Notes under the pieces: generated by a model
What the model saw: the letters and a program-made list of their open reading frames with translations, nothing else
Databases searched by the model: none
Told to the model about the DNA's origin: nothing
Part shown: positions 1,116 to 57,955 of the stretch, piece by piece
Numbering within the stretch: the stretch's first letter is position 1
Layout of the letters: each line of letters begins with the position of its first letter
Program-made: the position numbers and the translations under genes
Assembly: GCA_964581895.1 (NCBI GenBank)
Contig: CAZOPR010000002.1
Location: 254,185 to 318,184, forward strand
DNA from: an uncultured Brachyspira sp.
GTDB taxonomy: Bacteria; Spirochaetota; JAAYUW01
DNA length: 64,000 bases
Direction: 5' to 3'

Positions 1116-2290
1116 AGCTCATTGATTAGTGCAATATATTCTTTAGTCAGAGGGACATTTCTTCTTTTCATTATTTTTTCAATATTTTTAATAAGCGATG
1201 AATAATCATAGTGTTTTTCTTCTCCCCACATTGCATGAGCAACTGCTTTACTTTTAGGATTTTCAAACAAAATAGTACATTCACCAATTATTGTTCCGCA
1301 ATTTATCATAAGTCCTATTGAACATTTGACATGATCTCCAAAAAGCGAACCCATCTTTATTTGACCGCTGTCTATGTTATTGTTTCTGTATATGAACTTT
1401 ATATTTGAATAGTTGTTTTTTAAGTCTGAAGTTGTTGTCATGGCTCCAATATTTACCCATTCTCCCAAATAAGAATGTCCTAAAAAACCAGTATGATGTT
1501 TATTTGAAAAGTCGCTTATAATAGAGGCTTCTATTTCACCAGAGATTCTGCAATTAGAACCTATGGTAACATTATCATGAATATATCCCCTATCTACTAT
1601 GGTCTGAGGTCCTATATAACAACTTCCTCTTACTTCTGTAAATGCATTGATTTGAGCTTCTTTGTCAATTATAATAATGCCATCTAACGGCTCTATTGAA
1701 GTCAAAGGATGAACTTTAGCTTTTGGGTGGATGAAAAGATTATTCCCTTTATGCTTAAATTCCTTTATTCTCCCTGCAATAAATAGAACCTTATCCTGCT
1801 CAATATAACTTTTCTGATTAGATATAATATCAAAAAGATATTTTATAGAAGGAGCTTTTTGGACATCATTACATAATCCAAGAATTTCATAATCAAGTGA
1901 ATGCTCGTATAAGTTTTTTGGATTAATCTTTGCTAATAATTTTTTATTTGTACGTATAGCAAGAATCTCCTTATTTTCATCACATAATGCACAGTTTTCT
2001 TTCAGGCTTGATAAAGAGAGAAAATCAATTAATCTACTATTTATAAAAAGGACATCTTCGGAGTAATCATAAACAGGATTATCTATATTATTTTTTAATA
2101 AAAAATAGGAAAGCTGATTCTTCCTTGCTATGAATGATACTGAATCTATTTTATCTTTTAATATATATTTTAGATTAAATGCTTTCTGATAGATTTTGGT
2201 AAAGCCGGCATAAAGGTCAAATGCAGGATGGAAAGTTGAAAGGGGATGCAGTAAAGAGTTATAATAATCTTCAAATAAGACAATATTCAT
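1106..2290 (-). CDS. Hexapeptide-repeat (left-handed beta-helix) protein, putative sugar-nucleotide transferase-like
   Basis: C-terminal hexapeptide-like repeats (VTIGSNCRISGEIE, WVNIGAMTTTSD); ATG at 2290 has AGGAG 5 nt upstream and is preferred over the GTG at 2296 in the ORF track. Confidence 0.45.
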   Translation of the reverse strand: MNIVLFEDYYNSLLHPLSTFHPAFDLYAGFTKIYQKAFNLKYILKDKIDSVSFIARKNQLSYFLLKNNIDNPVYDYSEDVLFINSRLIDFLSLSSLKENCALCDENKEILAIRTNKKLLAKINPKNLYEHSLDYEILGLCNDVQKAPSIKYLFDIISNQKSYIEQDKVLFIAGRIKEFKHKGNNLFIHPKAKVHPLTSIEPLDGIIIIDKEAQINAFTEVRGSCYIGPQTIVDRGYIHDNVTIGSNCRISGEIEASIISDFSNKHHTGFLGHSYLGEWVNIGAMTTTSDLKNNYSNIKFIYRNNNIDSGQIKMGSLFGDHVKCSIGLMINCGTIIGECTILFENPKSKAVAHAMWGEEKHYDYSSLIKNIEKIMKRRNVPLTKEYIALINELYD

Positions 2291-5823: not shown

Positions 5824-6135
5824 ATGGAAAAAGTAATTAAAATTATTAAAGATGAAATCGAAAAATGTGATTTAAAAGTTTTAAAAATAATATTATTTGG
5901 TTCAAGATCTAGAGGTGATTTCAGAGATGATAGCGATTGGGACTTCCTTATTATAATAAATAAGAATTTAGATAGATCCAAAAAATGGGATTTGATAATA
6001 AAAATAAAAAGAAGATTATCTTCTTTAAAAATTCCTAATGATATTATAATAAACTCCTTTGAAGAGTTTGAAGAGAGAAAAGATAATGTAGGTTATATTA
6101 CATATTATGCATTTAGAGAAGGCATATCTTTATGA
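5824..6135 (+). CDS. Minimal nucleotidyltransferase (MNT-type, antitoxin-like)
   Basis: Pol-beta superfamily NTase motif ILFGSRSRGDFRDDSDWDFLII (GS...DxD); 103 aa; stop overlaps next start (ATGA). Confidence 0.75.
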   Translation: MEKVIKIIKDEIEKCDLKVLKIILFGSRSRGDFRDDSDWDFLIIINKNLDRSKKWDLIIKIKRRLSSLKIPNDIIINSFEEFEERKDNVGYITYYAFREGISL

Positions 6136-9609: not shown

Positions 9610-10050
9610 ATGAGTATATGGCTTGTTTGGTTACTTATTGCCATTGTCATGTTTATTATTGAAATATTTACCCCTGGTTTCTTTTCGGCTTGTCTTGGTA
9701 TTGCAGCTGCAATAAATGCTATTTTAATACTTATTTTCCCAAATCTTTCAACTATTTTGCAAATTGTAATCTTTTCTATTTTATCTATTCTTAGCTTTGT
9801 GACTATAAGACCTTTTGCCTTAAAGTACCTTTATAAAAGATCGAATAATATAGCTACAAATGCCGACGGTCTTATAGGCAAAAGAGGTAAGATCATTAAA
9901 CCGATAACTCCATCAAACTATGGTTCTTTGAAGATTTATAGTGATGAATTGATGGCTCTTTCTGAAGATGGCACCCCTATCGAAGAAGGTAGCGAAGTTG
10001 AAATTGTTAAACTTGATGGAATAAAAGTGATAGTTAGAAAGGTGAACTAA
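9610..10050 (+). CDS. NfeD-family membrane protein (partner of SPFH protein)
   Basis: Two TM helices then OB-fold-like C-terminus; directly upstream of SPFH gene; ATG 9610 preceded by GGAGG (track start 9577 is TTG). Confidence 0.6.
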   Translation: MSIWLVWLLIAIVMFIIEIFTPGFFSACLGIAAAINAILILIFPNLSTILQIVIFSILSILSFVTIRPFALKYLYKRSNNIATNADGLIGKRGKIIKPITPSNYGSLKIYSDELMALSEDGTPIEEGSEVEIVKLDGIKVIVRKVN

Positions 10051-10146
10051 CTATTAAAGTTAATTGAATAATAAAAAAATTAAATAATATAGTATAAAAA
10101 TATGACATTATAGTAAAAAAATATAGCATAAAAAAATGGAGGTTTT

Positions 10147-11130
10147 ATGGGAACTTTGATTTATGTTTTACTTGTAGTTCTAATTCTTTTTATCCTTATC
10201 ATGCTAATTAAAGGTATAAGAGTAATACCACAAGCATCTGCTATGATTATTGAAAGACTTGGAAGATACCACAAAACATTAAAATCTGGCTTAAATATTA
10301 TAATTCCAATAATTGATAAACCAAGGACAATAGATGTAATATACACAAAAAAGATGGCTGATGGTAGAGTTTATCAATACTCTAAAACCATGGATAGGCT
10401 GGACTTAAGAGAGACTGTATACGATTTTCCAAGACAAAATGTTATAACAAGAGATAATGTTGTCATTGAAATTGATGCAATAATCTATTACCAGATAATG
10501 GATCCTATTAAAGCAACATATGAAATTGCAAACTATCCTGATGCCATAGAAAAACTTACCAAAACAACACTTAGAAATGTCATTGGTGAAATGGATTTAG
10601 ATGAAACTTTAAGTTCAAGAGATAAGATAAACAATAAGTTAAGGATAATTCTTGATGAAGCAACAGATAAATGGGGTATAAAGATTAATAGAGTTGAGAT
10701 ACAGGATATTAATCCACCTAAAGATATAAAAGATGCTATGGAAAAGCAGATGAGGGCAGAGCGTGATAGAAGAGCCATAATCCTTTCTGCTGAAGGTGAT
10801 AAGCAGGCAGCAATTTTACAATCGGAAGGTGTAAAACAATCTGCTATAAATAGAGCCGATGGTGAAAAGCAAGCAAGAATTTTACAGGCTGAAGGTGAAG
10901 CTCAAGCTAAAGTAAGAATAGCTGAAGCTGAAGCCACTGCTATTAAAACAATTGCTTCAGCAATTTCATCTACAAAAACTGATCCAGGCACATATTTAAT
11001 AGCATTAAAATATATTGATGCATTTAAGGAAATAGCAGCAGGAAAAGATACAAAAACCGTATTTATGCCATTTGAAGCGACTTCTGTTCTTTCTTCCATT
11101 GGCACAATTAAAGAGATTTTCAAACAATAG
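10147..11130 (+). CDS. SPFH/band-7 (stomatin/prohibitin-like) protein
   Basis: N-terminal TM, band-7 core (VITRDNVVIEIDAIIYYQI), Ala/Glu-rich coiled-coil tail; GGAGG RBS. Confidence 0.8.
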   Translation: MGTLIYVLLVVLILFILIMLIKGIRVIPQASAMIIERLGRYHKTLKSGLNIIIPIIDKPRTIDVIYTKKMADGRVYQYSKTMDRLDLRETVYDFPRQNVITRDNVVIEIDAIIYYQIMDPIKATYEIANYPDAIEKLTKTTLRNVIGEMDLDETLSSRDKINNKLRIILDEATDKWGIKINRVEIQDINPPKDIKDAMEKQMRAERDRRAIILSAEGDKQAAILQSEGVKQSAINRADGEKQARILQAEGEAQAKVRIAEAEATAIKTIASAISSTKTDPGTYLIALKYIDAFKEIAAGKDTKTVFMPFEATSVLSSIGTIKEIFKQ

Positions 11131-17543: not shown

Positions 17544-17592
17544 ATGTTTATAACTTATTTTAATTTTAATTTTTTTTTTAATTTTAATTTTT

Positions 17593-28687: not shown

Positions 28688-29161
28688 TTGATACCTTCAA
28701 TATACAATATCATTCAGAAGTTTTCAGGAAAAGACCAGAAAAAAAGTGGGAAACTTGAAAGAACAGGTAGCTTAAAAAAAGAGGAGAAAAGTTTTGAACA
28801 GATTCTATTTGAAAAAAGGATAGAAGATATTGTTATTGAATATGAAAACCAGCCACCTGAAAATCTTACCTCCATGATAAATGAAGCTGGGAGAAGATAT
28901 AAAAATTCAAGAAACCAGCAAGATTTAATAAACTATAAAGAATTTCTTGCTTCTTTTATAGTATTGATAGAAAGGAAAGCCTATAAAATAAAGATAATAG
29001 ATAAAAAAAAGGATCTTCTTTCAGAAGATGAACTTGATTATATTATAATAGAGATAGAAAAAAGACTTGTTGCACTTATGGAAAGCTTTTTATCTTCACA
29101 AAGAGAGATTTTTTCATTGATAGACGAGATAGAAGGGTTAATTTTTAAGATAATGGTTTAA
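28688..29161 (+). CDS. Hypothetical protein between tmk and PSP1/RicT-like gene (TTG start)
   Basis: Position corresponds to where YaaR-like or holB genes sit in other bacteria; no motif confirmed. Confidence 0.3.
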   Translation: MIPSIYNIIQKFSGKDQKKSGKLERTGSLKKEEKSFEQILFEKRIEDIVIEYENQPPENLTSMINEAGRRYKNSRNQQDLINYKEFLASFIVLIERKAYKIKIIDKKKDLLSEDELDYIIIEIEKRLVALMESFLSSQREIFSLIDEIEGLIFKIMV

Positions 29162-29273
29162 GCTCGAAAAAGAACAAAAAAAAAGAACTAAAAGAAGAAA
29201 TAAAAAAAATTAAGTAAAGAAATAAAAAAAGATATAAAAAAAAGAAAAAAAAGAAATAAAAATAAGGAATTTT

Positions 29274-30305
29274 ATGTATCTTTATAGATGTAGATTATTA
29301 TATTCAAAAGCGATAATGGATTTCTATTCAAATAGTTTTTTTCAAATTTCACCACAATCTATCGTTAAAGTTGAGACAAAGCACGGGGTTGATCTTGCAA
29401 TATATTTAAATAAATTTGTAAATATTGATGATAAGGATTTTGATGAGATAATAAAATATCAGGCAACATCAGTTGAAGAAAATGTTGAAAGCATAGAAAA
29501 CACACAGGATTTTATCGATGAAGTTTCCGATGAACAGATAATTAACCAGCAGATTATTCAAAATTATACAAATTTAGCAAACAACGAAAAAGTAAGTAGA
29601 AAAAAACAGGTTAAAATAGAAGGGAAATTTTTATCTGCTGCAAGTCCTGATGACTTAAAAATATATAGAGAAAATGAGGTAAAGGCAGAAGAAGCGTTCA
29701 ATGTTTTTAAGCAGGAGATAAAAGAATGCAATCTTGAACACGAGATGAAACCTGTTGGAGTCCATTATTTTCTGGATGGTATGAAAATTCTATTTGATTT
29801 TGTTGCAGATCATAGGATTGACTTTAGAGAACTTGTTAAAAAACTTGCCGCAAGATATAGGAAAAGAATAGAACTTCATCAGATTGGAGTTAGAGATGAA
29901 GCGAGGATGATAGACGGGCTTTTTATTTGTGGGCAGCAGCTATGTTGCAGACGTTTTTTGCAACAACTAACACCAATTTCTATAAAGATGGCAGAGGTTC
30001 AAAATGCTCCTTTAAATACAATGAAAATTTCTGGTTATTGCGGAAGGCTGCTTTGCTGCCTTTCATATGAATCAGACCAATATGAAGAGGCAAAAGAGAA
30101 TCTTCCAGAACTTGGGTCAACAGTTATTTATAATAATGAAAAATATACTGTTTCTGAAGTTAATGTGATCAGGCAATATTTGAAAATAAAGAAAAAAGAA
30201 AGTATGGAATTTGTTTTGCTTAAAAATGAGCCTCTTACCTATGAAAAAGATAACGATGGAAATATAATAATTACAAAATATGAGCTTTATAATATGGCGA
30301 AATAA
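29274..30305 (+). CDS. PSP1 C-terminal domain protein (RicT/YaaT-like)
   Basis: Conserved Cys cluster ICGQQLCCRRF ... GYCGRLLCCLSYE; AAGGAA RBS. Confidence 0.6.
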   Translation: MYLYRCRLLYSKAIMDFYSNSFFQISPQSIVKVETKHGVDLAIYLNKFVNIDDKDFDEIIKYQATSVEENVESIENTQDFIDEVSDEQIINQQIIQNYTNLANNEKVSRKKQVKIEGKFLSAASPDDLKIYRENEVKAEEAFNVFKQEIKECNLEHEMKPVGVHYFLDGMKILFDFVADHRIDFRELVKKLAARYRKRIELHQIGVRDEARMIDGLFICGQQLCCRRFLQQLTPISIKMAEVQNAPLNTMKISGYCGRLLCCLSYESDQYEEAKENLPELGSTVIYNNEKYTVSEVNVIRQYLKIKKKESMEFVLLKNEPLTYEKDNDGNIIITKYELYNMAK

Positions 30306-30535
30306 AATAATATGGCGAAATAAAAAAAATAAAAAGATAAAATAAAGAAAATACAAAGAAGATAAAAAAAATTCAATAAAAGTTAAAAAGAAAAAATAAA
30401 AAGAAAAAGTAAAAGAGAATAAAAAGAGAATAAAAAGAAAAAATAAAAAGAGAATAAAAAGAGAAAATAAAGCGAAAATAAAAAAATATTATAAAGATAA
30501 AATAGAATTAATAACCTTAAATAATAAAATCTATC
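30306..30535 (+). repeat. A/G-only low-complexity spacer with internal gagaataaaaa-type repeats
   Basis: About 230 bp almost devoid of C/T on + strand. Confidence 0.7.
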
Positions 30536-31459
30536 TTAAAACTTATAACTTAAATTCATCCCCAAATATAATCTACTGATCTCTGAAATATCTGTGATAT
30601 TATCCGAATAAAAAGAATAGATTAAAACTCCAAATGCTGGTTCAAGTTTGAAATGGTCTAAAGTAAAGATAAGATTTGCTTTTGCATAAATATATTGATG
30701 AATATAAGTTAAAGAAGATACTGTTTTTAAGTCATTGTAAGAGTAACCTAATGCTAAAACAAAACCAAATGCAGTAATTGTTGGAACATATTTTATAATC
30801 AAAGCAAGGTCGTAGGTATTTAATTTGCTGTAATTTATAGATGTAGATGTTGTATCGAAGTTATAAAGAATTGAATCATATTTGAATGCAAGACCTATGG
30901 AAAGCTGATAGATATAAAATCCTATTTCAGTATTTATATCGTATTTTTCAAATGTATCAGATTTTGGAAGTTCAACTAAAGATGAAAAGATTGGCTGAAT
31001 ATATATAGGGTTGTTTATAGAGAGAAAAAAGAAAAGAAGCGGATAAAAATCCAGCAAAATAGAAGTGAAATTTTCAAAATAAGTAAATATATTATCAAAT
31101 GAATCTGAAACTTCAACCTTAAATCTTTCTTCAAAAGTTAAAAAATCTTTAATATATGAAAAACCTAATGAAAAGCTATTTGGTTGCTTAAAATTATAGG
31201 TGTTTCTTTCAAAGAAAAAGGATAAAGAAAGATTTTGGTTAAGATTTATTGAAAAAGATAAAATTGCATTATAGAAGGTATTATTTTTGATAGAAGTAAA
31301 GGAGTTTGAATACTGAAAAGGTAAAAAGCCATAGTCAAAACCAAGGGTAATCTGCTGGGCGAAGATAATATTTGGGAAAATTGTTAAGAAAAAAAGACAA
31401 GTTATTAAAATATTTAAAAGAAAAATTTTTTTATATCTTTTGGTAAATTTTATTTTCAT
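30536..31459 (-). CDS. Putative outer-membrane beta-barrel protein
   Basis: Signal peptide from ATG 31459 (AGGAG 8 nt upstream; track start 31483 adds 8 aa), Tyr/Phe-rich, C-terminal YKF. Confidence 0.4.
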   Translation of the reverse strand: MKIKFTKRYKKIFLLNILITCLFFLTIFPNIIFAQQITLGFDYGFLPFQYSNSFTSIKNNTFYNAILSFSINLNQNLSLSFFFERNTYNFKQPNSFSLGFSYIKDFLTFEERFKVEVSDSFDNIFTYFENFTSILLDFYPLLFFFLSINNPIYIQPIFSSLVELPKSDTFEKYDINTEIGFYIYQLSIGLAFKYDSILYNFDTTSTSINYSKLNTYDLALIIKYVPTITAFGFVLALGYSYNDLKTVSSLTYIHQYIYAKANLIFTLDHFKLEPAFGVLIYSFYSDNITDISEISRLYLGMNLSYKF

Positions 31460-31665
31460 ATAAAATACTCCTGCTTTATCCATTTTATTTCAATTAATAT
31501 ATAGCCTAAAAAAAATAAAATAGCAAAATAAAAAAAATTAAATTGTTAAATTATATAAAAAAAATTTAAAAAAATATGAAAAATCACTTGACAATGAGAA
31601 AAAAGATATTATTTGTATAGTAAGCACGTTATGTGCAGAAAACAAAAAAATCGGAGGAAATTTCT

Positions 31666-32706
31666 ATGAAGAAAATTTTACTAGTTATCGCTCTTATTCT
31701 TCTTATCGCTCTCCCTCTTTTTGCTCAGGAAGTTACAGTTGAAGATTTAAACAAAAGATTAACCAAACTCGAAATGTGGAAGTTTGGTGGTCTTTACATT
31801 AACTGGATGTATGTAAGTATACCAAATTCTGGTTTTCAGTGGGGATTTTTCTATGTCCCAACAGATGGTGATGGAATGCAACTTTCTTACATTCTTCCAA
31901 GATTTACAGCTCAATACAAAAATGGTAACTTTGTTGCTTTTTTCAGATTGAGCGCTGGTAAAGACGACGGCACTTTCCCTGCAGTTGCTTGGGATAGATG
32001 GTATGTTCAGTACAATCTTGGTTTTATGACATTACAAGTTGGTAAATTCACAGTTGGTGATACAATTCAACCTGAAATGTTCTACACATTCTGGTCTTCT
32101 GGTGCTAATATAAAAGATTGGGGTTCAAATGGAGATAATGGTTTTGGACTTCATATCCCAGTTGGTCCTGCTACAATCCATTTAGTTATTCCTTCAAATT
32201 TAAGCTGGGCTACTGGTGCTGAAGCTATCAATATTCATGCGTATGTTGACGGTTCTGTTGCTGATATGCTTAATTTCATAGTTGGTATGGATTATGATAT
32301 GAATGTTGCTACAGCAATATGGGCTGGTTTTTCAGTTACTCCAATGGAAATTTTAACAATTGGTGCTAACTTTGCTATGAATATGCCAGAAGGCGGCACT
32401 TCAGATTGGGAACTTTTATGGAATATTGCAGTTACTCCAACTGAAGATATCGCTATTTACAATGAAGGTGCTTATAGAGCAGGTTTAAGTTATTTACAAA
32501 CAGCTATTTGTGTATATTACACAAGCTTATATTTAAAAGCTGCTTTAGAAATGGATCTTACAACAAGCGATATGACAATTGGTGCTGAAGTTGGTTATGA
32601 TTTGACATTCGGAAGACTTTATTTCACACCAGCTTTCTATTTAACTCTCCCACCAACTGGCGATGCTGATTATGGTTTAAAACTTTTATTCTTGGCTATT
32701 TTCTAG
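31666..32706 (+). CDS. Porin-like outer-membrane protein, likely highly expressed
   Basis: ATG 31666 preceded by GGAGGA (track start 31633 is GTG); signal peptide ending FAQEV; C-terminal LAIF; biased codon usage; strong terminator downstream. Confidence 0.45.
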   Translation: MKKILLVIALILLIALPLFAQEVTVEDLNKRLTKLEMWKFGGLYINWMYVSIPNSGFQWGFFYVPTDGDGMQLSYILPRFTAQYKNGNFVAFFRLSAGKDDGTFPAVAWDRWYVQYNLGFMTLQVGKFTVGDTIQPEMFYTFWSSGANIKDWGSNGDNGFGLHIPVGPATIHLVIPSNLSWATGAEAINIHAYVDGSVADMLNFIVGMDYDMNVATAIWAGFSVTPMEILTIGANFAMNMPEGGTSDWELLWNIAVTPTEDIAIYNEGAYRAGLSYLQTAICVYYTSLYLKAALEMDLTTSDMTIGAEVGYDLTFGRLYFTPAFYLTLPPTGDADYGLKLLFLAIF

Positions 32707-32736
32707 TTTTTTAATAATTGATATAATCTAAAAATT

Positions 32737-32768
32737 GGGTGAAAAGCTTGGCTTTTCACCCTTTTTTT
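32737..32768 (+). terminator. Rho-independent terminator
   Basis: Perfect 10-bp stem gggtgaaaag / cttttcaccc with 5-nt loop followed by T7. Confidence 0.65.
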
Positions 32769-32817
32769 ATTATTGAAAAAAAAAGAAAATAGATAATATT
32801 AAAAAAAAGGAATTTTT

Positions 32818-33408
32818 ATGAAAAAATTTTATTTTATATTTTTTGTTTTTATATTCATAATTTTAATTTCGTGTAATACTACAAATAGTTTTGTAAAGAC
32901 AAGTTGGGTAGAAAGACTAAATCAAAAAGTTATAGTTGAAAATGATTATTGTTATGCTGAATGTAGCTTTGTAGATAAAGAGGCAATGACAAAAAATATT
33001 GCATCAGAGGGGATGAATCCTTTTATCTATAGGGACCCAATAATTACAAAACAGGAATCTATATTATTTTCTCTTCTTATTATACCAAAGGTAAATTTTG
33101 AAATATATGCCCAAGAGGTTTACATTAAAACTGAAGCAGCTAGTTATCCAATACTTTTTAGTGAATATATTCTTGATCAAAATATGTATGAAAGTGAAAT
33201 TGATTCTGTAACAAAAAAGATGAAAGACTTTGTTAATAAATACTTTCTTTCAAAAAAAGAGATATATAAAAATGGTGAAAGAAAAGTTAGATTTTTATAT
33301 TCTATTGTAAATCTAGATTATAAAGGTGCTATGGTTAGGATACCTATTCATATAAATCAGGATAAAATTTCTGTATTAAATTTTATTTTCCCAGAAATAA
33401 AAAGATAA
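32818..33408 (+). CDS. Hypothetical lipoprotein
   Basis: Signal peptide with lipobox-like LISC. Confidence 0.35.
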   Translation: MKKFYFIFFVFIFIILISCNTTNSFVKTSWVERLNQKVIVENDYCYAECSFVDKEAMTKNIASEGMNPFIYRDPIITKQESILFSLLIIPKVNFEIYAQEVYIKTEAASYPILFSEYILDQNMYESEIDSVTKKMKDFVNKYFLSKKEIYKNGERKVRFLYSIVNLDYKGAMVRIPIHINQDKISVLNFIFPEIKR

Positions 33409-33527
33409 AATAAAAAAATAAAGTATAAAAGATAAAGACAATAGATAAAAAAATATTAAAAAAAAGCAAATAAAAATAAAATAAAAGTAAAAAAAATATA
33501 ACTAAGATAAAATAAAAACAAAAAAAT

Positions 33528-33839
33528 ATGCAAAAGGATAAAATCTTAAAGCGAATTGTAACTGAATGTTTCTGGGACTATGATATTGATGAAAATTATT
33601 TATCCAATGCTATAAAAAATGGTGGCTTAACCGAAAAAAGAAAAATAGCTGAAAAAATAATACTAAATATGAGACAACCTGTAGATGGGCTACTTCTATT
33701 TTCAAAGGAAGATTTAGCTAAAATATTTGAATCTTTTAATGAAAAAATCAGGAAAAAAGAAAAAGTATTACTTTTGGAAAATTGTCTTTTAGGAAAAAAT
33801 AATAAAATAGAAAAATATGAATGGAAAAAGTTGGGATAA
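33528..33839 (+). CDS. Small hypothetical protein, candidate partner of AbiEii-like NTase
   Basis: 103 aa; overlaps next gene by 23 nt in a different frame. Confidence 0.3.
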   Translation: MQKDKILKRIVTECFWDYDIDENYLSNAIKNGGLTEKRKIAEKIILNMRQPVDGLLLFSKEDLAKIFESFNEKIRKKEKVLLLENCLLGKNNKIEKYEWKKLG

Positions 33840-34476
33840 GATTTATCAACTTCAAGATAGATTATTAGATATCATTTTTTCAATAGATAATAGTTTTTAT
33901 CTTACTGGTGGAACAGCTCTACATAGATTTTATTATAATTTAAGAGTTTCTTACGATCTTGATTTTTTCTCTTCTTCAACTGAGACTTTTTATGATGAAA
34001 TAGTAAATATTTTACAAAAACTTTTAGATGAAAAAATAGAATATAAAATTATTTCGAAAGTAAAAGATTTTAGTCGTATTTTAATTGAAGATGATCTTCA
34101 AATTGATTTTGTAAATGATAGAGTTTATAGATATGGGAAAAGTAATATAATAAATAGGTTTAGAATAGATAATATCGAAAACATATTATCAAATAAGGTT
34201 TGTGCAATAATAGATAGAGACGAAGAAAAGGATTTTTTCGATTTATTTGCTATTGCAAAAAATCATTCATTTAATTGGGAAAATATTTTTAATATATGCA
34301 ATAAGAAACAGATTGTTGAAAAAGAAGTTTTTGTAGAAAGGATAAAAAGTTTTCCCCTAATATGGCTTGAAAAAATAAGATTGATACAACCTTTTGAAAT
34401 CCATAAAAGTGATATTGAAAAACTGATTGAAGATTCTATTTATGGTAAAGATAATTCGCTAATTATGAAAAAATAA
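33817..34476 (+). CDS. AbiEii/DUF1814-like nucleotidyltransferase (toxin-like)
   Basis: N-terminal motif LTGGTALHRFYYNLRVSYDLDFF (GGTAL ... RxSxDxD). Confidence 0.5.
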   Translation: MNGKSWDKIYQLQDRLLDIIFSIDNSFYLTGGTALHRFYYNLRVSYDLDFFSSSTETFYDEIVNILQKLLDEKIEYKIISKVKDFSRILIEDDLQIDFVNDRVYRYGKSNIINRFRIDNIENILSNKVCAIIDRDEEKDFFDLFAIAKNHSFNWENIFNICNKKQIVEKEVFVERIKSFPLIWLEKIRLIQPFEIHKSDIEKLIEDSIYGKDNSLIMKK

Positions 34477-35952: not shown

Positions 35953-37266
35953 ATGAAGAAAAAAATAAATAAAATACTTTTCATTCTCCTTTTAATAATT
36001 ATCATTGCTGCTATTAGTTTTTACTTTATTTATAAAAATAAGGTCGCAGCAAAAAAAAATATTGTTTTCACCACTGCTATAATCCAAAGTGGTAGCATCA
36101 CAAGTTCTGTAAGTGCATCTGGAAAGATAGAGCCAATCGATTCCTATCCTGTAATGGCTTCAATATCTGGTAAAATAGATAAGGTTCTTGTTGATTATAA
36201 TTCAAAAGTCAAAAAAGGGCAGATTTTAGCCATAATAAAACAGGATGATTATTTGTTTGCCTTGAAGCAGGCTCAGCTTAGTTACGATGAAGCAACTATA
36301 ACTTTATCAAATAAAGAGATGGATTATAATAATAATCTTGAACTTTATAAAAAAGGTTTTTTGACTTCTGCTGCACTAAAAGAATCTGAAAATAGTTATA
36401 AACTTGCACAGATAGCAGTTGAATCGGCTAAGGTTTCGCTTGAAAAGGCTAAAACAAATCTTGAAAATACATTATTAAAATCTCCAATAGATGGCTTCAT
36501 ACTTGAAAAAAATGTTGACGAAGGGGATTTTATAAGCACAAATATTTCTCAATCTGAACTTTTTGTAGTCTGTTCAGATCTTTCAAGACTGAAAATAACG
36601 GCAAATGTTGATGAATCAGATATTAGTCTTATAAAGGAAGGCCAAAAAGTCCAATTTACAGTTTTGGCTTATGATACAATGAGTTTTACAGGAGAAGTAA
36701 AACAGATAAGATTAAATTCAAATGAAAGCTCAAATGTTGTGACTTACACAGTTATAATAGAGACAAAAAATATAGATAATAAGCTACTTCCAGGGATGAC
36801 AGCTTCTATAGAATTTGTAAATCAACCAAGCGAGGGAGCATTTTTGGTTCCTCAAACATCAATATCACTAAAAGGTTTGGCGTTGCTTAAGAATATTGGA
36901 CCTTATACTGTTAATATCCCAAAAAATCAAGGGGTTAATCCTTCACAAAATCAAAATCCTTCACAAAATCAAAATCTTTTTAAAACACAAAATCCTTCTC
37001 AAAATCAAAATCCTACTCAAAATTTTAACAAAAGTTCTGATTCAAACCAACTTCAAAACAAGAATATAAAGATACTATGGGTTATAGATGAGACAAAAAA
37101 GATTGTATATCCAATTCCAGTAAAAACAGGAAATACAGATGGGAAAATGATTGAGGTCTTTTCTCCACTTTTGAAAGAAGGGATGAAAATAATTTCAAGC
37201 CTTATGACTAAAAATAAAACCAATAACCAGAACAATAATTTTGGCATGCCTCCAATTCGATTTTAG
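35953..37266 (+). CDS. Periplasmic adaptor (membrane fusion, HlyD/MacA-like) with C-terminal N/P/S/Q repeat
   Basis: N-terminal TM, coiled-coil hairpin, beta-barrel region; NPSQNQ tandem repeats near C-terminus. Confidence 0.7.
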   Translation: MKKKINKILFILLLIIIIAAISFYFIYKNKVAAKKNIVFTTAIIQSGSITSSVSASGKIEPIDSYPVMASISGKIDKVLVDYNSKVKKGQILAIIKQDDYLFALKQAQLSYDEATITLSNKEMDYNNNLELYKKGFLTSAALKESENSYKLAQIAVESAKVSLEKAKTNLENTLLKSPIDGFILEKNVDEGDFISTNISQSELFVVCSDLSRLKITANVDESDISLIKEGQKVQFTVLAYDTMSFTGEVKQIRLNSNESSNVVTYTVIIETKNIDNKLLPGMTASIEFVNQPSEGAFLVPQTSISLKGLALLKNIGPYTVNIPKNQGVNPSQNQNPSQNQNLFKTQNPSQNQNPTQNFNKSSDSNQLQNKNIKILWVIDETKKIVYPIPVKTGNTDGKMIEVFSPLLKEGMKIISSLMTKNKTNNQNNNFGMPPIRF

Positions 37267-39357: not shown

Positions 39358-39439
39358 AATTTTATATTAAATAAAAGATAAAATTAGATAAAAGAAATAT
39401 TAAATAAAAGAAAATATTAGATAAAAGCTAAGAGTAGGT

Positions 39440-40264: not shown

Positions 40265-40333
40265 AATTATCTCCTGAAAAAGGAACTCATATTTCAAAGG
40301 TTTATATACAGTCGAAAAAACAATAAGATAGAA

Positions 40334-45260: not shown

Positions 45261-45286
45261 AAAAGGAGGTAAATTATGAAAAAAAG

Positions 45287-45359
45287 TCGGAAAGAGGAGA
45301 TTTGAACTCCTGACCCCATGGTCCCGAACCATGTGCGCTACCATCTGCGCTACTTTCCG
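45287..45359 (-). tRNA. tRNA-Pro (anticodon CGG)
   Basis: 73-nt cloverleaf: acceptor CGGAAAG/CTTTCCG, D-arm GCGC-AGATGGTA-GCGC, anticodon arm CATGG-TTCGGGA-CCATG, T-arm AGGAG-TTCAAAT-CTCCT; CCA not encoded. Confidence 0.85.
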
Positions 45360-45568
45360 ATAAAAGCTGAGATTAAAAAGAAAATTACAAAAGAAAATTA
45401 CAAAATAAAATAAAAATTACAAGTTAACCGTTTTTATTTATTAGACTAGATTTTTGCTTAAAAATTACATTTTATTAATAAAAAATTGTCTTTTAAAAAA
45501 TTTTTGAATTAACTTTTCATAAAATAGATTTTACATTAAAATAAATCTTATTAAAGTCGCTATTTTTT

Positions 45569-47545
45569 TTATTTTTTTGTTAGTAGTTTTATCTTATCTC
45601 GAAGCACTGCTGCTTCCTCAAATTCCCACTTTTTAGCAGCTTCCATCATTTGATTTGTCAAAATTTTAATCAATTTTTCTTTTTCTTTTGGATTTAATAT
45701 ATTGTATTTTTTTATCAAAAGATCATAGGCAAGACTTGCGCCTTCTTCTTTTGCCTTTTCCTCTCTTTCGATAAATGTTTTAACCTCTTTTTTTATACTG
45801 GCAGGCACTATATTGTTCTTTTCATTGAACTGGATTTGTATCTGTCGCCTTTTTCTTGTAAGCTCTATAGCCTGCTTCATCGAATCTGAGATTTCATCGG
45901 CATACATTATTATCGTTCCATTGACATTTCTCGCCGCCCTACCCATCATCTGTATTAAAGATTTTTCTGAACGTAAAAACCCGACTTTATCTGCATCTAA
46001 TATTGCGACAAGAGTAACTTCGGGTAGATCCAACCCTTCCCTTAAAAGGTTGATACCAACCAGTATTTTATATTCACCTTTTCTAAATCTGGTAATGATA
46101 TCTATTCTATCGAGAGAGTCAATTTCTGAGTGAAGATAGGCAGCAGGGTATCTTTGCTTTTCAAGATAATCAGCCAGGTCTTCAGCATTTTTTTTGGTTA
46201 AAACAAGTGCCAAAATCCTTTCATCATTAGCAAGTCTTTTATCTATTTCAGCTATTAAATCCTTAACCTGGTTTTCTGCTGGGCGAACAATTATTTCAGG
46301 GTCTAAAAGTCCTGTTGGCCTTATCCATTGTTCGACAACAACACTTGAACTTGTTTCATATTCAGAAGGTGTTGCACTTACAAATAAGACCTTGTTAAAA
46401 TATTTTTCTACTTCTTCAAAACGAAGTGGTCTATGGTCATAGGCAGAAGGAAGTCGAAAACCATAATCGATAAGCGCTTTCTTTCGCGATAGATCTCCAC
46501 CATACATGGCATGAAGTTGAGGAATTGTAACATGTGATTCATCGATAACTATAAGAAAATCTTTTGGGAAGTAGTCAAGCAAAGTTGCAGGCGGTTGCCC
46601 TGGGAGCCTTCCACTAAAATGTCTGCTATAATTTTCAATCCCTTTTACAAAGCCTACCTCATTTATCATCTCTATATCATAAGAGGTTCTTGATAAAAGT
46701 CTTTCTGCTTCAAGGTTTTTCCCCATTTCTTTAAGCTGCCTATATCTATCATTAAGTTCATTTTCTATGGAAATTAGTGCTCTTTTTCTTTCGTCAAGGT
46801 TTGTGACAAAATGCTTTGCCGGATAGATGGTGAATTGTTCTACTTCTGAAATCAAATCTGTAGTAACCGAATGAATAAGCAAAAGCTTTTCGATATTATC
46901 TTGAAAAAATATAATTCTTAAAGCATGCTCGGTATAAGCAGGGAAGATATCTACAATATCCCCTTTGATTCTAAATTTTCCAGGGGTAAATTCTATATCA
47001 GATCTTTCATAAAATATTGCGACAAGAAGCGAGGTAAGCTGTTCTATAGGCATTTGTTCATTTACCTTTAATGGTATTCTCTGATTTTTATATTCATCAG
47101 GATTTCCTATACCATAGATACAGCTTACCGTAGCCACTACTATTACATCATTTCTTGATAAAAGTGCTTCTGTCGCTTTGAGTCGGAGTCGCTCAATCTC
47201 TTCGTTTATATCGGAGTCCTTTTCTATATAGAGATCTCTTGTTGGTAAATATGCTTCTGGTTGATAATAATCAAAGTAAGATACAAAATATTCAACTGCA
47301 TTTTCAGGAAAAAAAGAGTGAAGTTCGCTATAAAGTTGACCAGCTAAAGTTTTGTTATGAGATATCACAAGAGTTGGAAGTTGAAGTTTTTCAATGATAT
47401 GAGCAACCGTAAATGTTTTGCCAGAGCCAGTTACCCCGTGCAAAGTAACTCTTTGTTTACCACTTTTAAAAGCTAAAGTTATCCTTTCTATTGCTTGTGG
47501 CTGATCTCCCGCTGGTGAAAAATTTGAATGAATCTTAAATCTCAT
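45569..47545 (-). CDS. uvrB: Excinuclease ABC subunit B
   Basis: Walker A GVTGSGKTFT, helicase motifs, C-terminal UvrB/UvrC interaction region EEAAVLRDKIKLL. Confidence 0.95.
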   Translation of the reverse strand: MRFKIHSNFSPAGDQPQAIERITLAFKSGKQRVTLHGVTGSGKTFTVAHIIEKLQLPTLVISHNKTLAGQLYSELHSFFPENAVEYFVSYFDYYQPEAYLPTRDLYIEKDSDINEEIERLRLKATEALLSRNDVIVVATVSCIYGIGNPDEYKNQRIPLKVNEQMPIEQLTSLLVAIFYERSDIEFTPGKFRIKGDIVDIFPAYTEHALRIIFFQDNIEKLLLIHSVTTDLISEVEQFTIYPAKHFVTNLDERKRALISIENELNDRYRQLKEMGKNLEAERLLSRTSYDIEMINEVGFVKGIENYSRHFSGRLPGQPPATLLDYFPKDFLIVIDESHVTIPQLHAMYGGDLSRKKALIDYGFRLPSAYDHRPLRFEEVEKYFNKVLFVSATPSEYETSSSVVVEQWIRPTGLLDPEIIVRPAENQVKDLIAEIDKRLANDERILALVLTKKNAEDLADYLEKQRYPAAYLHSEIDSLDRIDIITRFRKGEYKILVGINLLREGLDLPEVTLVAILDADKVGFLRSEKSLIQMMGRAARNVNGTIIMYADEISDSMKQAIELTRKRRQIQIQFNEKNNIVPASIKKEVKTFIEREEKAKEEGASLAYDLLIKKYNILNPKEKEKLIKILTNQMMEAAKKWEFEEAAVLRDKIKLLTKK

Positions 47546-47579
47546 ATTTACCCTTTTTCTTTAATAAAAAATAACCTTT

Positions 47580-47680
47580 AATAAAATATAATTTTTATTA
47601 AAATATAATCTTTATTAAAATATAATCTTTATTAAAATATAATCTTTATTAAAATATAATCTTTATTAAAAAATATTTTA
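47580..47680. repeat. Tandem 17-bp repeat (attaaaatataatcttt), 4 exact plus 2 degenerate copies, in the uvrB upstream region
   Basis: Exact copies at 47597-47613, 47614-47630, 47631-47647, 47648-47664; each contains tataat. Confidence 0.85.
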
Positions 47681-49423: not shown

Positions 49424-50236
49424 TTATTCTCCTTTTACATCATACTCTACTATTCTTAAATATGTCAGAAAATAGAAGAAGAAAGAAAGAAGGAATTTTA
49501 TAATTTCGCCAAGTAAAGTGTAATTTATCTCTTTTAATCCTAATCTTGATAGAGTATCTGAAAGATTGAGTGAAAATTGCATTGACATATTATTAAAGAA
49601 TAGCAAAAATACTGATGTATATATCAAAAAAAAGGCGAAGAATATTGCAAGTATAGTTAATATTGTGAGTAGAAAACTATTTTTTTTGAAATATGTCGAA
49701 CCAAGCATAAAGATAGAAGTGATAAAAAAGTATGAAGAAATTATTTTATAGTTAAAAAGAGATAATATCGCATCTAATGGATAAGTTCTTCGCAAAAAAG
49801 CAAAAATAAAAATATTATTAACTAAGAAAGCGATGATAGTAAATAATATACTTAAAAGAAGATAAAAGAAAAAATAGTAAAGCCAGATACTCAAAAATTT
49901 TTCAAAGATTGTTACTGGAACCATAAAAAATTGTGTTGCTTTTTCTTCCTGATGAAGATGCTTAAAACTATTTGAAGCCATAATGCAACCAATAAATAAA
50001 GAAATTATTAGATAAAAATTAAGGTTGATAGAATTAGTTATCATTATAGAACTGGCAATAAAAATCTTTTTAATAAAAATAGTAAATAAAATACCAAAGA
50101 TAAAAATTAAGTTTACAACTAAAGGCGCTATAAAAATTTGTTTACCATATAAATTAAAATCAAGTTTCAATAAAGATAGAAAATTCTTAGTTTTCGAATT
50201 TTCGTAAATTCTAAGTTTTTTATCTATTTCTGTCAT
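49424..50236 (-). CDS. Multi-pass membrane protein, probable ABC-2 type permease
   Basis: Six predicted hydrophobic segments; sits between ABC ATPase and GntR regulator. Confidence 0.4.
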   Translation of the reverse strand: MTEIDKKLRIYENSKTKNFLSLLKLDFNLYGKQIFIAPLVVNLIFIFGILFTIFIKKIFIASSIMITNSINLNFYLIISLFIGCIMASNSFKHLHQEEKATQFFMVPVTIFEKFLSIWLYYFFFYLLLSILFTIIAFLVNNIFIFAFLRRTYPLDAILSLFNYKIISSYFFITSIFMLGSTYFKKNSFLLTILTILAIFFAFFLIYTSVFLLFFNNMSMQFSLNLSDTLSRLGLKEINYTLLGEIIKFLLSFFFYFLTYLRIVEYDVKGE

Positions 50237-50253
50237 TTTTTACTCCTATTGTA

Positions 50254-50460
50254 ATGTTATTTTTTCCTTTTTTCGTTTTTATTTTTTATTTTTATATTTT
50301 TATATTTTTTACTTTTCTTTATATTTTTTACTTTATTTTTATTTATTTCTTTTCTATTCTTTTTTTACTTTTTGCTTTTTTATTTTCTTTTTTTAATTTT
50401 TTTTATTTTTTGCTTTTATATTTTTTGTTTATTTTGTTTTTATTATTTCAGTTTGACTGA
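50254..50460 (-). repeat. Polypurine (A/G-only on minus strand) spacer between ABC ATPase and permease genes
   Basis: About 200 bp of T/C-only sequence on + strand. Confidence 0.7.
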
Positions 50461-51275
50461 TTAAAAATAGTCGGATTTGATATAGCAGCATTGAAGAAAA
50501 ATTCTAAATCTACTACCTCATTATTATTTTTTCTATTAAGAAGGTAGATTTTGCCAGTTGCTGACTGCTCAAAATATATAATATTTTCCTGATCATTTTG
50601 TTGATTTGATTCAGTAGCAATAGAATAATTTTGAGTAATATAGTCTAAAGAGTTATTAAAAATGATCTTGCCTTCGTGAAGTATTATAATTTTATCAAAA
50701 AGCTGAGACAGATCTCTTACCTGGTGTGTAGATATTATAAAAATTTGATTTTCAGTTAAACTTTCAGCTATTTTTTTTCTTACAGAAGTCTTTGAAGGGA
50801 TATCAAGACCATTTGTTGGTTCATCTAAAAGCATTATTTTAGCAAATGTTGAAAGGCCAAATGCAAGGTAAAACTTTTTCTTCTGACCAAATGAAAGAGA
50901 GATCAGGTTTTTATCAAGAGGGATTTCAAATTCTTTGCAGGTTTTGAAAAAGTATTCTTCATCAAAATTTGGGTAAAATTCACTGTAAAGTTTATAAAAT
51001 TTTTCACCATTGAAAGATGGCAAGTAAAAATTTTCAGGGAAAAAGAAGATATCTTTCAGCATTTCTGGATCTCTTTTTATAGATTTTTTACCCATAACTT
51101 CGATTTCGCCATTATTTAAATGAAGTAGTCCTGTTATACATTTTAATAATGTCGTTTTCCCTGCACCGTTTTTACCTAAGAGTCCATAGATATGTCCTTG
51201 CTCAAAATTTGCATAAAGATTATTGAAAAGCAGGTTTTTTGAATAACCAAAGACAAGATTTTTACATTCAATCAT
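50448..51275 (-). CDS. ABC transporter ATP-binding protein
   Basis: Walker A GKNGAGKTT, signature LSFGQKKK, Walker B MLLDEPTNGLD; AAGGAG 5 nt upstream of ATG 51275. Confidence 0.85.
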   Translation of the reverse strand: MIECKNLVFGYSKNLLFNNLYANFEQGHIYGLLGKNGAGKTTLLKCITGLLHLNNGEIEVMGKKSIKRDPEMLKDIFFFPENFYLPSFNGEKFYKLYSEFYPNFDEEYFFKTCKEFEIPLDKNLISLSFGQKKKFYLAFGLSTFAKIMLLDEPTNGLDIPSKTSVRKKIAESLTENQIFIISTHQVRDLSQLFDKIIILHEGKIIFNNSLDYITQNYSIATESNQQNDQENIIYFEQSATGKIYLLNRKNNNEVVDLEFFFNAAISNPTIFNQSN

Positions 51276-51478
51276 CATATCTCCTTAATATTAATATTTT
51301 AGTGCATTACATCACTAATACACCAAATAAATAATACAATAATTTCAAAAGTCAACTATTTTTAAATTTATTTTGAAAATTTAATTAAAAAATATATTCT
51401 TAAAAAATTAATTTTTCAAAAATTTCTTTTTGAAAAATTAATTTTTGAAAAAAGATTAAAAAAAAGTATTTTATTTAT

Positions 51479-57876: not shown

Positions 57877-57955
57877 AAATATTTAATCCTGATATTTAAT
57901 TTTAATATTTAATTCAAACATTTAATTCAAATATTTAAATCTAATATCTAACCTT
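57877..57955. repeat. Phased degenerate ~13-bp repeats (atatttaattc-like) in the scpA upstream region
   Basis: aaatatttaatcc / tgatatttaatt / ttaatatttaattc / aaacatttaattc / aaatatttaaatc. Confidence 0.6.

Follow-up and report, generated by a model that had tools for sequence, protein, structure and literature searches.

Adenine-rich tracts oriented with transcription in the intergenic spacers of an Exilispira-like spirochete are best explained as young repeat expansions

Several spacers in an AT-rich bacterial chromosome, among them the one behind a PSP1/YaaT-like gene at 30306–30535, carry long and repetitive stretches that are strongly biased toward purines on the strand of the adjacent genes. 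Are such tracts targets of a regulator, the footprint of a strand-specific mutational process, or something more ordinary? We addressed the question within a window of 64,000 nucleotides, the whole stretch of DNA that was analysed, and by comparison with related genomes. The window is a segment of a bacterial chromosome with a GC content of 27%, and its host is an AT-rich, Exilispira-like spirochete; Exilispira is a genus known from hot springs, and among the publications listed for "Exilispira" in a literature search no title or abstract concerns its intergenic sequence. An earlier, sequence-only reading of this DNA had listed five intervals of interest, and all five turned out to be correctly placed and intergenic (Table 1). 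We found the tracts to be best explained as ordinary, fast-evolving and young A-rich repeat expansions and not as a conserved regulatory element.

Table 1. Positions, composition and repeat structure of the A-rich spacers, the surrounding genes and other repeats in the window. Base fractions refer to the plus strand unless marked as sense; TRF denotes tandem repeat calls (period x copies).
Feature	Position	Strand	Base composition	Core (score; A fraction)	Repeat units	Spacer length, window and relatives	Context
Small (AATTTT)n-type spacer	17544–17592	-	sense A.69				between two minus genes
DUF327 gene	28688–29161	+					downstream of tmk, upstream of PSP1
A-rich spacer	29162–29273	+	A.71, T.13, G.12, C.04	29167–29262 (36;.79)	TRF 12 x8.2; units 12, 13, 22 nt	26 nt L002; 46 L003; 112 window; 316 L001/L004	intercistronic, DUF327 to PSP1
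PSP1/YaaT-like gene	29274–30305	+					
Tandem duplication ATAATATGGCGAAATAAA	30289–30325	+			18 bp x2.1, TRF matches 100%		PSP1 stop codon and left edge of the next spacer
A-rich spacer	30306–30535	+	A.70, T.17, G.10, C.03	30318–30486 (46;.76), 169 nt	units 11 nt	1 nt L001/L004; 35 L002; 174 L003; 230 window	between PSP1 and the convergent 315-aa gene
315-aa gene	30536–31483	-					convergent with PSP1
Bidirectional hairpin terminator	32737–32761						
196-aa gene	32818–33408						upstream of the next spacer
A-rich spacer	33409–33527	+	A.74, T.17, G.06, C.03	33395–33526 (33;.75)	TRF 11 x11.3 at 33395–33523; units 11 and about 20–31 nt		between the 196-aa gene and the AbiE-like pair
103-aa gene and AbiEii toxin-like gene (AbiE-like pair)	33528–34476						after the preceding spacer
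A-rich spacer, clearly weaker	39358–39439	+	A.59, T.28, G.12, C.01		17/33-nt tandem repeat, ATATTAAATAAAAGAAA x3.8	29 nt L002; genes overlap in L003	between the FtsX/MacB permease gene and a 274-aa gene
Array without A-richness	39364–39427						intercistronic
Array without A-richness	47558–47675				17-mer x6.9	9–28 nt in relatives; 91 L008	intercistronic
270-aa membrane protein gene	49424–50236	-					gene order ABC ATPase, membrane protein, GntR
A-rich spacer, strongest	50237–50447	-	A.14, T.75, G.03, C.08	50260–50448 (63; sense.78)	TRF 14 x11.7 and 19 x6.6 at 50268–50430; units 8, 14, 19 nt	45–59 nt L009, L010, L012; 115 L007; 193–212 window species	ABC ATPase to membrane protein
ABC ATPase gene	50448–51278	-					
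Array without A-richness	57877–57951						intercistronic

By the PSP1/YaaT-like protein, the nearest species-representative genomes are L001, an Exilispira sp. MAG (69% amino acid identity), and L002, a MAG labelled "uncultured Brachyspira" (73%), both with conserved gene order. Further relatives (L003, L004, L007–L010, L012, and L014–L017) were taken from metagenome and assembly look-ups. The PSP1 proteins of L003 and L004 are 88% and 74% identical to that of the window, L004 being conspecific with L001, and the 270-aa membrane protein is 80% identical in L007/L008, 63% in L009, 55% in L010, and 50% in L012; L014–L017 are contigs of the window's own species from independent samples. We rejected an assembly artefact, as the tracts were found again in independent assemblies.

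The tracts had been described as A/G-only and almost free of C and T, which does not fit their composition: T makes up 9–17% of the sequence, with one T every 6–10 nt, and what distinguishes the tracts is adenine. The four strong spacers are 70–75% A on the sense strand and 75–79% A within their cores; purines reach 80–83% in the A-rich tracts, and C is low. Most other spacers of the window have about.40–.50 A and.36–.45 T, with an AT skew near zero and only a few discrete outliers at or above 0.63, and the four strong spacers are thus a discrete outlier class. The transcripts had further been expected to carry long polypurine runs, and in the strict sense they do not: the longest purine run in the 30306 tract is 12 nt. 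Unbroken purine runs reach at most 12, 9, 9, and 21 nt in the strong tracts, and pyrimidine runs 15 nt; over the whole window no run of either kind exceeds 22 nt, and the permutation null has a mean of 16 and a maximum of 21. Runs of purines in the strict sense do not exceed the length allowed by chance.

The excess over base composition, on the other hand, was confirmed once expressed as adenine. We scored maximal A (or T) segments with +1 for a match and -2 for any other base and compared them with sequences simulated under Markov models of order 1, 3, and 5 of the window (100 runs each). No simulation exceeded a score of 23 and all four cores did (Table 1), so the excess of A is real; the spacer at 39358–39439 stayed under the A-segment threshold. 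Runs of at least 10 A numbered 0 of 174, with 12.9 expected. That A runs stop at 9 nt was considered as a tract-specific feature and rejected as such, since the limit on A/T homopolymers holds genome-wide and in all loci.

Every tract is a degenerate head-to-tail tandem array with a unit length of its own, and TRF matches within the arrays are 66–78%. The gagaataaaaa-like units seen by eye in the 30306 tract were recovered by TRF as a period of 11 nt with 14.8 copies and 72% matches at 30318–30484; the unit, AAATAAAAAGA, is the TRF consensus of two tracts. Each tract occupies the gap from the upstream stop codon to the ribosome-binding site of the following gene. The same genome contains intercistronic tandem arrays without A-richness at three further positions (Table 1), which indicates that the expansion of spacers is a general process and that A-richness is a property of the unit.

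The focal spacer separates two convergent genes and is, for that reason, A-rich only in the 3' region of PSP1; in the transcript of the 315-aa gene it would make the 3' region U-rich. Its left edge and the PSP1 stop codon are spanned by a perfect 18-bp tandem duplication, which is missing from L003 in the alignment of the orthologous spacer; the L003 spacer as a whole has.61 A and cannot be aligned to that of the window. The same-species contig L014 stops 3 nt past the PSP1 stop codon, at the start of this tract. On the other side of PSP1, the tract at 29162–29273 terminates at an AAGGA ribosome-binding site that precedes the ATG by 8 nt (...AAATAAGGAATTTT-ATG at 29274). Stop codon, ribosome-binding site, and ATG stay aligned across the genomes at this junction. 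The spacer between them is identical in the window and L014, and the 316-nt version of L001/L004 has.76 A. The 271-nt tract of L001 has units of 8 and 14 nt; one A8/A9 indel and two substitutions separate L001 from L004.

The strongest tract, at 50237–50447, has.75 A on the minus strand and stops about 25 nt ahead of an AGGAG ribosome-binding site (...AAAAAAGGAAAAAATAACATTACAATAGGAGTAAAAA-ATG at 50236, minus strand). Across its 211 nt, contigs of the same species with a 99%-identical flanking protein differ only by one 19-nt repeat-unit indel and one 1-nt indel; the 115-nt spacer of L007 at this junction is not A-rich. The tract at 33409–33527 is matched by only 3 nt at the junction in L004. 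With L003 it is 92% identical, about as conserved as the flanking coding sequence, and differs by a single 10-nt unit indel; this degree of conservation counts against the explanation favoured below.

At the three junctions examined, the lengths of orthologous spacers are unconserved, and no strong tract was found in about 110 kb of L002 and L006–L012. The length variation and the unit-sized indels argue that the tracts are young products of slippage or duplication rather than conserved elements. The gene pairs around the three co-directional tracts are down to 3–59 nt apart in relatives, and this tight linkage suggests that the pairs are probably co-transcribed.

The strand consistency noted from the sequence alone held up when counted. 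Among A/T-rich intergenic segments with a score of at least 12 between co-directional genes, in the window and non-duplicate loci of the relatives, 15 were sense-A and 1 was sense-T (P = 5e-4), or 13:1 once two orthologous duplicates were removed. In co-directional spacers of at least 30 nt, sense A exceeded T in 52 and T exceeded A in 18 (P = 6e-5), and A/T-rich segments inside coding sequence showed no sense bias (10 vs. 9). The long tracts alone represent about five independent events, one of them convergent, for which the strand rule is not statistically significant; its main support comes from the smaller segments and a general spacer bias. Ordinary leaders without a strong tract already have more A (.51–.52) than T (.31–.35) at positions -30 to -10, and the tracts accordingly look like amplified A-rich leader sequence. 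An A-rich initiation context has been described across bacteria and matches the leader bias seen here (PMC7043885). Within the plus-oriented left half of the window, all three co-directional spacers of minus genes have sense A>T. The spacer at 17544–17592 lies in a block of minus genes enclosed by plus genes and hints that polarity follows transcription and not the replichore, two effects that 64 kb cannot cleanly separate.

The sense RNA of the tracts shows neither structure nor promoter-like, terminator-like, Rfam, or (ARN)n signals. The predicted minimum free energy is 0 kcal/mol for each tract, compared with -11.6 to -25.9 kcal/mol for ordinary spacers of the same length. The scan of the window found no promoter-like hexamer pair inside any tract, and a single minus-strand match, at 30318–30289, straddles the left edge of the focal tract. 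Terminator-like sites with a GC-rich hairpin and a U run were likewise absent from the tracts; the same scan returned a clear textbook bidirectional terminator (Table 1). In a search with the Rfam 15 covariance models, no family matched a tract and only tRNA-Pro reached its gathering score; within 29000–33700, no match with E of 1 or less overlapped a tract. The tract cores have stop codons in all three frames, on which ground hidden coding was rejected, and contain zero or one YC dinucleotide. They have no ATG, GTG, or TTG, with 5.7 ± 2.1 in shuffles, and 67 of the 73 T residues have A as the next base. A binding site for the distal face of Hfq, (ARN)n, was also considered and rejected, the longest runs being 5–8 compared with shuffle means of 7.8–10.2.

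We consider it probable, with a confidence of roughly 60%, that the tracts are degenerate A-rich simple-sequence expansions, similar to micro- or minisatellites, of untranslated spacers. Short A-rich units of the ordinary A>T leader would have been tandemly amplified, presumably by slippage, and the amplification would have inflated spacers that are 1–60 nt long in relatives to 100–320 nt. The orientation, with A and not U in the mRNA, would be inherited from the seed unit. Purifying selection probably helps to keep it, as an A-rich insert may well be harmless to a transcript: it brings no structure, no U-run or hairpin terminator and no start codons, has stops in every frame and offers little C for Rho. 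The array at 47558–47675, which is not A-rich, has U4 runs in its sense RNA, and the proposed filter on orientation thus cannot be strict. The DUF327 to PSP1 spacer expanded in two separate lineages, that of the window and that of L001/L004, which could reflect selection or just a hotspot. Similarly, the depletion of start codons and the near-invariant step from T to A could result from selection on the RNA instead of the inheritance of units.

The main alternative, a functional role in the RNA, is possible but, in our judgement, unlikely. The tracts may be selected cis-acting elements, that is, A-rich, C-free, and unstructured leaders that would recruit ribosomes, via S1, as standby sites or as initiation enhancers, and that may also shield an untranslated operon segment from Rho or spurious initiation and tune the downstream cistron. 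Their ends just upstream of the AAGGA and AGGAG ribosome-binding sites, the lack of structure, start codons, and YC dinucleotides, the sense-A orientation, and the growth of the DUF327 to PSP1 spacer in two lineages are all consistent with this. A-rich upstream sequence promotes initiation in Escherichia coli and is enriched across bacteria (PMC7043885), and unstructured 5' tails serve as standby sites (PMC5934652). On the other hand, the same junctions lack a tract in L002, L007, L009, L010, and L012, and the genes are intact in close relatives; lengths vary 10-fold and sequences cannot be aligned between species; the known enhancer effect extends over about 15–20 nt compared with the 100–300 nt here; and the focal tract lies in a 3' convergent spacer without a downstream cistron. 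The earlier suggestion of a regulatory or RNA-binding-protein target predicts conservation and does not hold up, as the tracts are absent or of very different length in close relatives, match no Rfam family and show no enrichment of (ARN)n. A more speculative form of selection, to which we give still less credence, would make the tracts positively selected operon "insulators" or landing pads in a thermophile-related lineage, boosting or uncoupling downstream translation or recruiting an A-binding protein. Selection would then hold the composition while slippage turns over sequence and length, and this would account for the recurrent DUF327 to PSP1 expansion and the absent start codons.

Readings that place the cause in the DNA fare worse. 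Phased A-tract curvature or rigid poly(dA:dT), or sites for nucleoid proteins, UP-like function, or melting, would fit the frequent A5–A8 runs and the 11-nt period of the focal tract (z = 4.1 in autocorrelation), and periodic A-tracts are known from genomes (PMC4060949). Yet lag 11 is significant only at 30318–30486; the other tracts have peaks at 22/13, 20/11, and 8/14/18, so that weaker signals at 11 or 20–22 nt appear in two of them while periods of 8, 14, and 18–19 nt share no helical phase, and a common phasing was rejected on these grounds. The absence of a promoter-like hexamer pair inside any tract (the one match just straddles the edge of the focal tract), the lack of conservation at orthologous sites and a polarity that follows gene orientation, as a DNA element need not do, further make this reading quite improbable. 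Even less probable is strand-asymmetric mutation, coupled to replication or transcription, by which A (and G) would accumulate on the sense or leading strand and unconstrained spacers would drift to extreme A. From 26 to 40 kb, a region of plus-strand genes, GC and AT skews are positive; past 40 kb they turn negative, and the polarity of the tracts switches likewise. The coding sense strand is 53.8% purine. Its positive AT and GC skews arise at codon positions 1 and 2 and so reflect amino acid composition. A replication-associated skew, as the sequence-only reading had proposed, predicts A>T at four-fold degenerate sites. On the sense strand T instead exceeds A at these sites (AT skew -0.03 to -0.14) and C exceeds G, in plus and minus genes of both window halves (four of four groups), which largely refutes it. 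The near-zero AT skew of most spacers beside a few outliers, the unbiased A/T-rich segments in coding sequence and the construction of the tracts from repeat units also speak against it. It is hardly plausible that the tracts are remnants, whether of Lys/Glu-rich coding tails that have decayed, of genes that were deleted and left a scar, or of a dispersed mobile element. The PSP1 gene of L001 contains K/E/D-rich coding low complexity (10322–10413), two tracts share the AAATAAAAAGA consensus, and holB, flanked in Bacillus by the yaaR-like and yaaT genes, is absent here. Against this origin stand the stop codons in three of three frames, the relatives with 26–46-nt spacers that likewise have no gene there, the absence of terminal repeats and of target-site duplications around the tracts (the 18-bp repeat is a tandem one, confined to a single edge), and unit indels within the tracts, which indicate growth in situ. 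We regard H-DNA, or triplexes and triplex target sites on homopurine–homopyrimidine sequence, as the least credible reading of all: the purine content would suit it, and the interruption by T and the purine runs, which do not exceed the rest of the window or the null, effectively refute it.

If the tracts are A-rich repeat expansions, they matter mainly as a warning: a duplicated A-rich leader can give a very AT-rich genome striking low-complexity spacers with a strand bias, and these need not regulate anything. There are practical consequences as well. The tracts break short-read assemblies, as at the end of L014, and give rise, on the T-rich strand, to long ORFs that are spurious (L001 9627–10088; L004 1565–1924); being hypervariable, they could serve in metagenomes to type strains of the lineage. 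Should the rule on orientation hold across the whole genome, the tracts would form a small natural experiment on the low-complexity inserts tolerated by operon transcripts.

Among known systems, curved DNA with phased A-tracts resembles the tracts in the A5–A8 runs and the 11-nt repeat of the focal tract and differs in that no helical period is common to them and polarity follows transcription. Initiation enhancers, S1 leaders, and standby sites share the unstructured A-rich RNA immediately 5' of the ribosome-binding site, and ordinary leaders here are A>T as well. The known sites are about 15–20 nt long or defined single-stranded tails (PMC7043885; PMC5934652), whereas the tracts are 100–300 nt, dispensable in close relatives and, in one case, located in a 3' convergent spacer. 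A further comparison is suggested by the sense strand being the purine-rich one and by the nearest named relatives belonging to Exilispira. Purine loading of mRNA-synonymous strands (Szybalski's rule) was reportedly described by Lao and Forsdyke in 2000, and Paz et al. are said to have found polypurine tracts in the mRNAs of thermophiles in 2004. The resemblance is only superficial, as the excess here is of adenine only and confined to a few untranslated spacers instead of being genome-wide, four-fold sites are pyrimidine-skewed, and strict polypurine runs do not exceed chance. The closest match is with simple-sequence and minisatellite-like repeats that arise by slippage. The units of the tracts are unusually A-pure, their arrays heavily degenerate, and their polarity goes with the transcribed strand, a trait not general among such repeats; head-to-tail units, unit-sized indels, and unconserved orthologous length, three of three features compared, are nevertheless shared, together with the noncoding location and the break of an assembly at a tract.

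None of the codons ATG, GTG and TTG occurs in any frame of the four tract cores (29167-29262, 30318-30486, 33395-33526 and 50260-50448), where shuffled sequences lead us to expect 5.7 ± 2.1, and 67 of the 73 T's in these cores are followed by A. The absence of start codons and the T-to-A context may reflect selection against spurious starts, or may merely have been inherited with the repeat units. The limit on homopolymer length is genome-wide: across the window and all loci (~300 kb), we found no A or T run longer than 10 nt, although A+T content is 73% and local A content reaches 75-79%.

On the T-rich complement of the long tracts, stop codons are scarce and spurious ORFs of 119-153 aa appear (9627-10088 (-) in L001 and 1565-1924 (-) in L004, two relatives found via the PSP1-like protein), which a gene caller could annotate as genes. 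Two independent short-read contigs of the window's own species terminate at or inside tracts, L014 ending 3 nt past the PSP1 stop (6086-6089) and L017 starting (1-120) within the tract at 50.2 kb, so assembly is interrupted by these tracts. In the window, an 18-bp duplication at the PSP1 stop codon has produced a second ...NMAK-stop copy directly 3' of the gene's own.

Further features of the window (window coordinates)
Feature	Position	Setting	Details
18-bp tandem duplication	30289-30325	final codons and stop of the PSP1-like gene	perfect
Predicted intrinsic terminator	32737-32761		strong, bidirectional; 11-bp stem GGGTGAAAAGC/GCTTTTCACCC, A and T runs either side; fold z = -4.3
103-aa gene and AbiEii-family nucleotidyltransferase toxin gene	33528-34476		
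In-frame 18-nt tandem repeat	36937-37023	437-aa gene, 35953-37266	AATCCTTCTCAAAATCAA x4.8, 82% matches
13-nt repeat	45375-45416	directly upstream of tRNA-Pro(CGG) (45286-45359, -)	ATTACAAAAGAAA x3.2
17-nt tandem array	47558-47675	between uvrB (45569-47545, -) and next minus-strand gene	TCTTTATTAAAATATAA x6.9, 93% matches

The segment upstream of tRNA-Pro, with T on the sense strand, is the sole exception to the strand rule among A/T-rich intergenic segments between codirectional genes. The 17-nt array, whose units are well preserved, is an expanded spacer without A-richness; the uvrB-side junction that holds it measures 91 nt in L008 and 9-28 nt in L009, L010 and L012, all relatives found via the 270-aa membrane protein. 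At the convergent junction around 40265-40333, gene orientation changes from mostly plus to mostly minus, coinciding with the maximum of cumulative GC skew (~40 kb), and the order MacB/FtsX, 279-aa gene, glycosyltransferase is kept in L010 and L012. The skew peak may be terminus-like or a mere effect of gene orientation.

The predicted terminator indicates that canonical hairpin terminators are used in this lineage. The 103-aa gene and the AbiEii-family toxin gene, found in the window, L003 and L004 and missing at the syntenic position of L002 (L002, L003 and L004 being relatives found via the PSP1-like protein), adjoin an A-rich tract that is 92% conserved in comparison with L003, and form a pair resembling type IV toxin-antitoxin systems.
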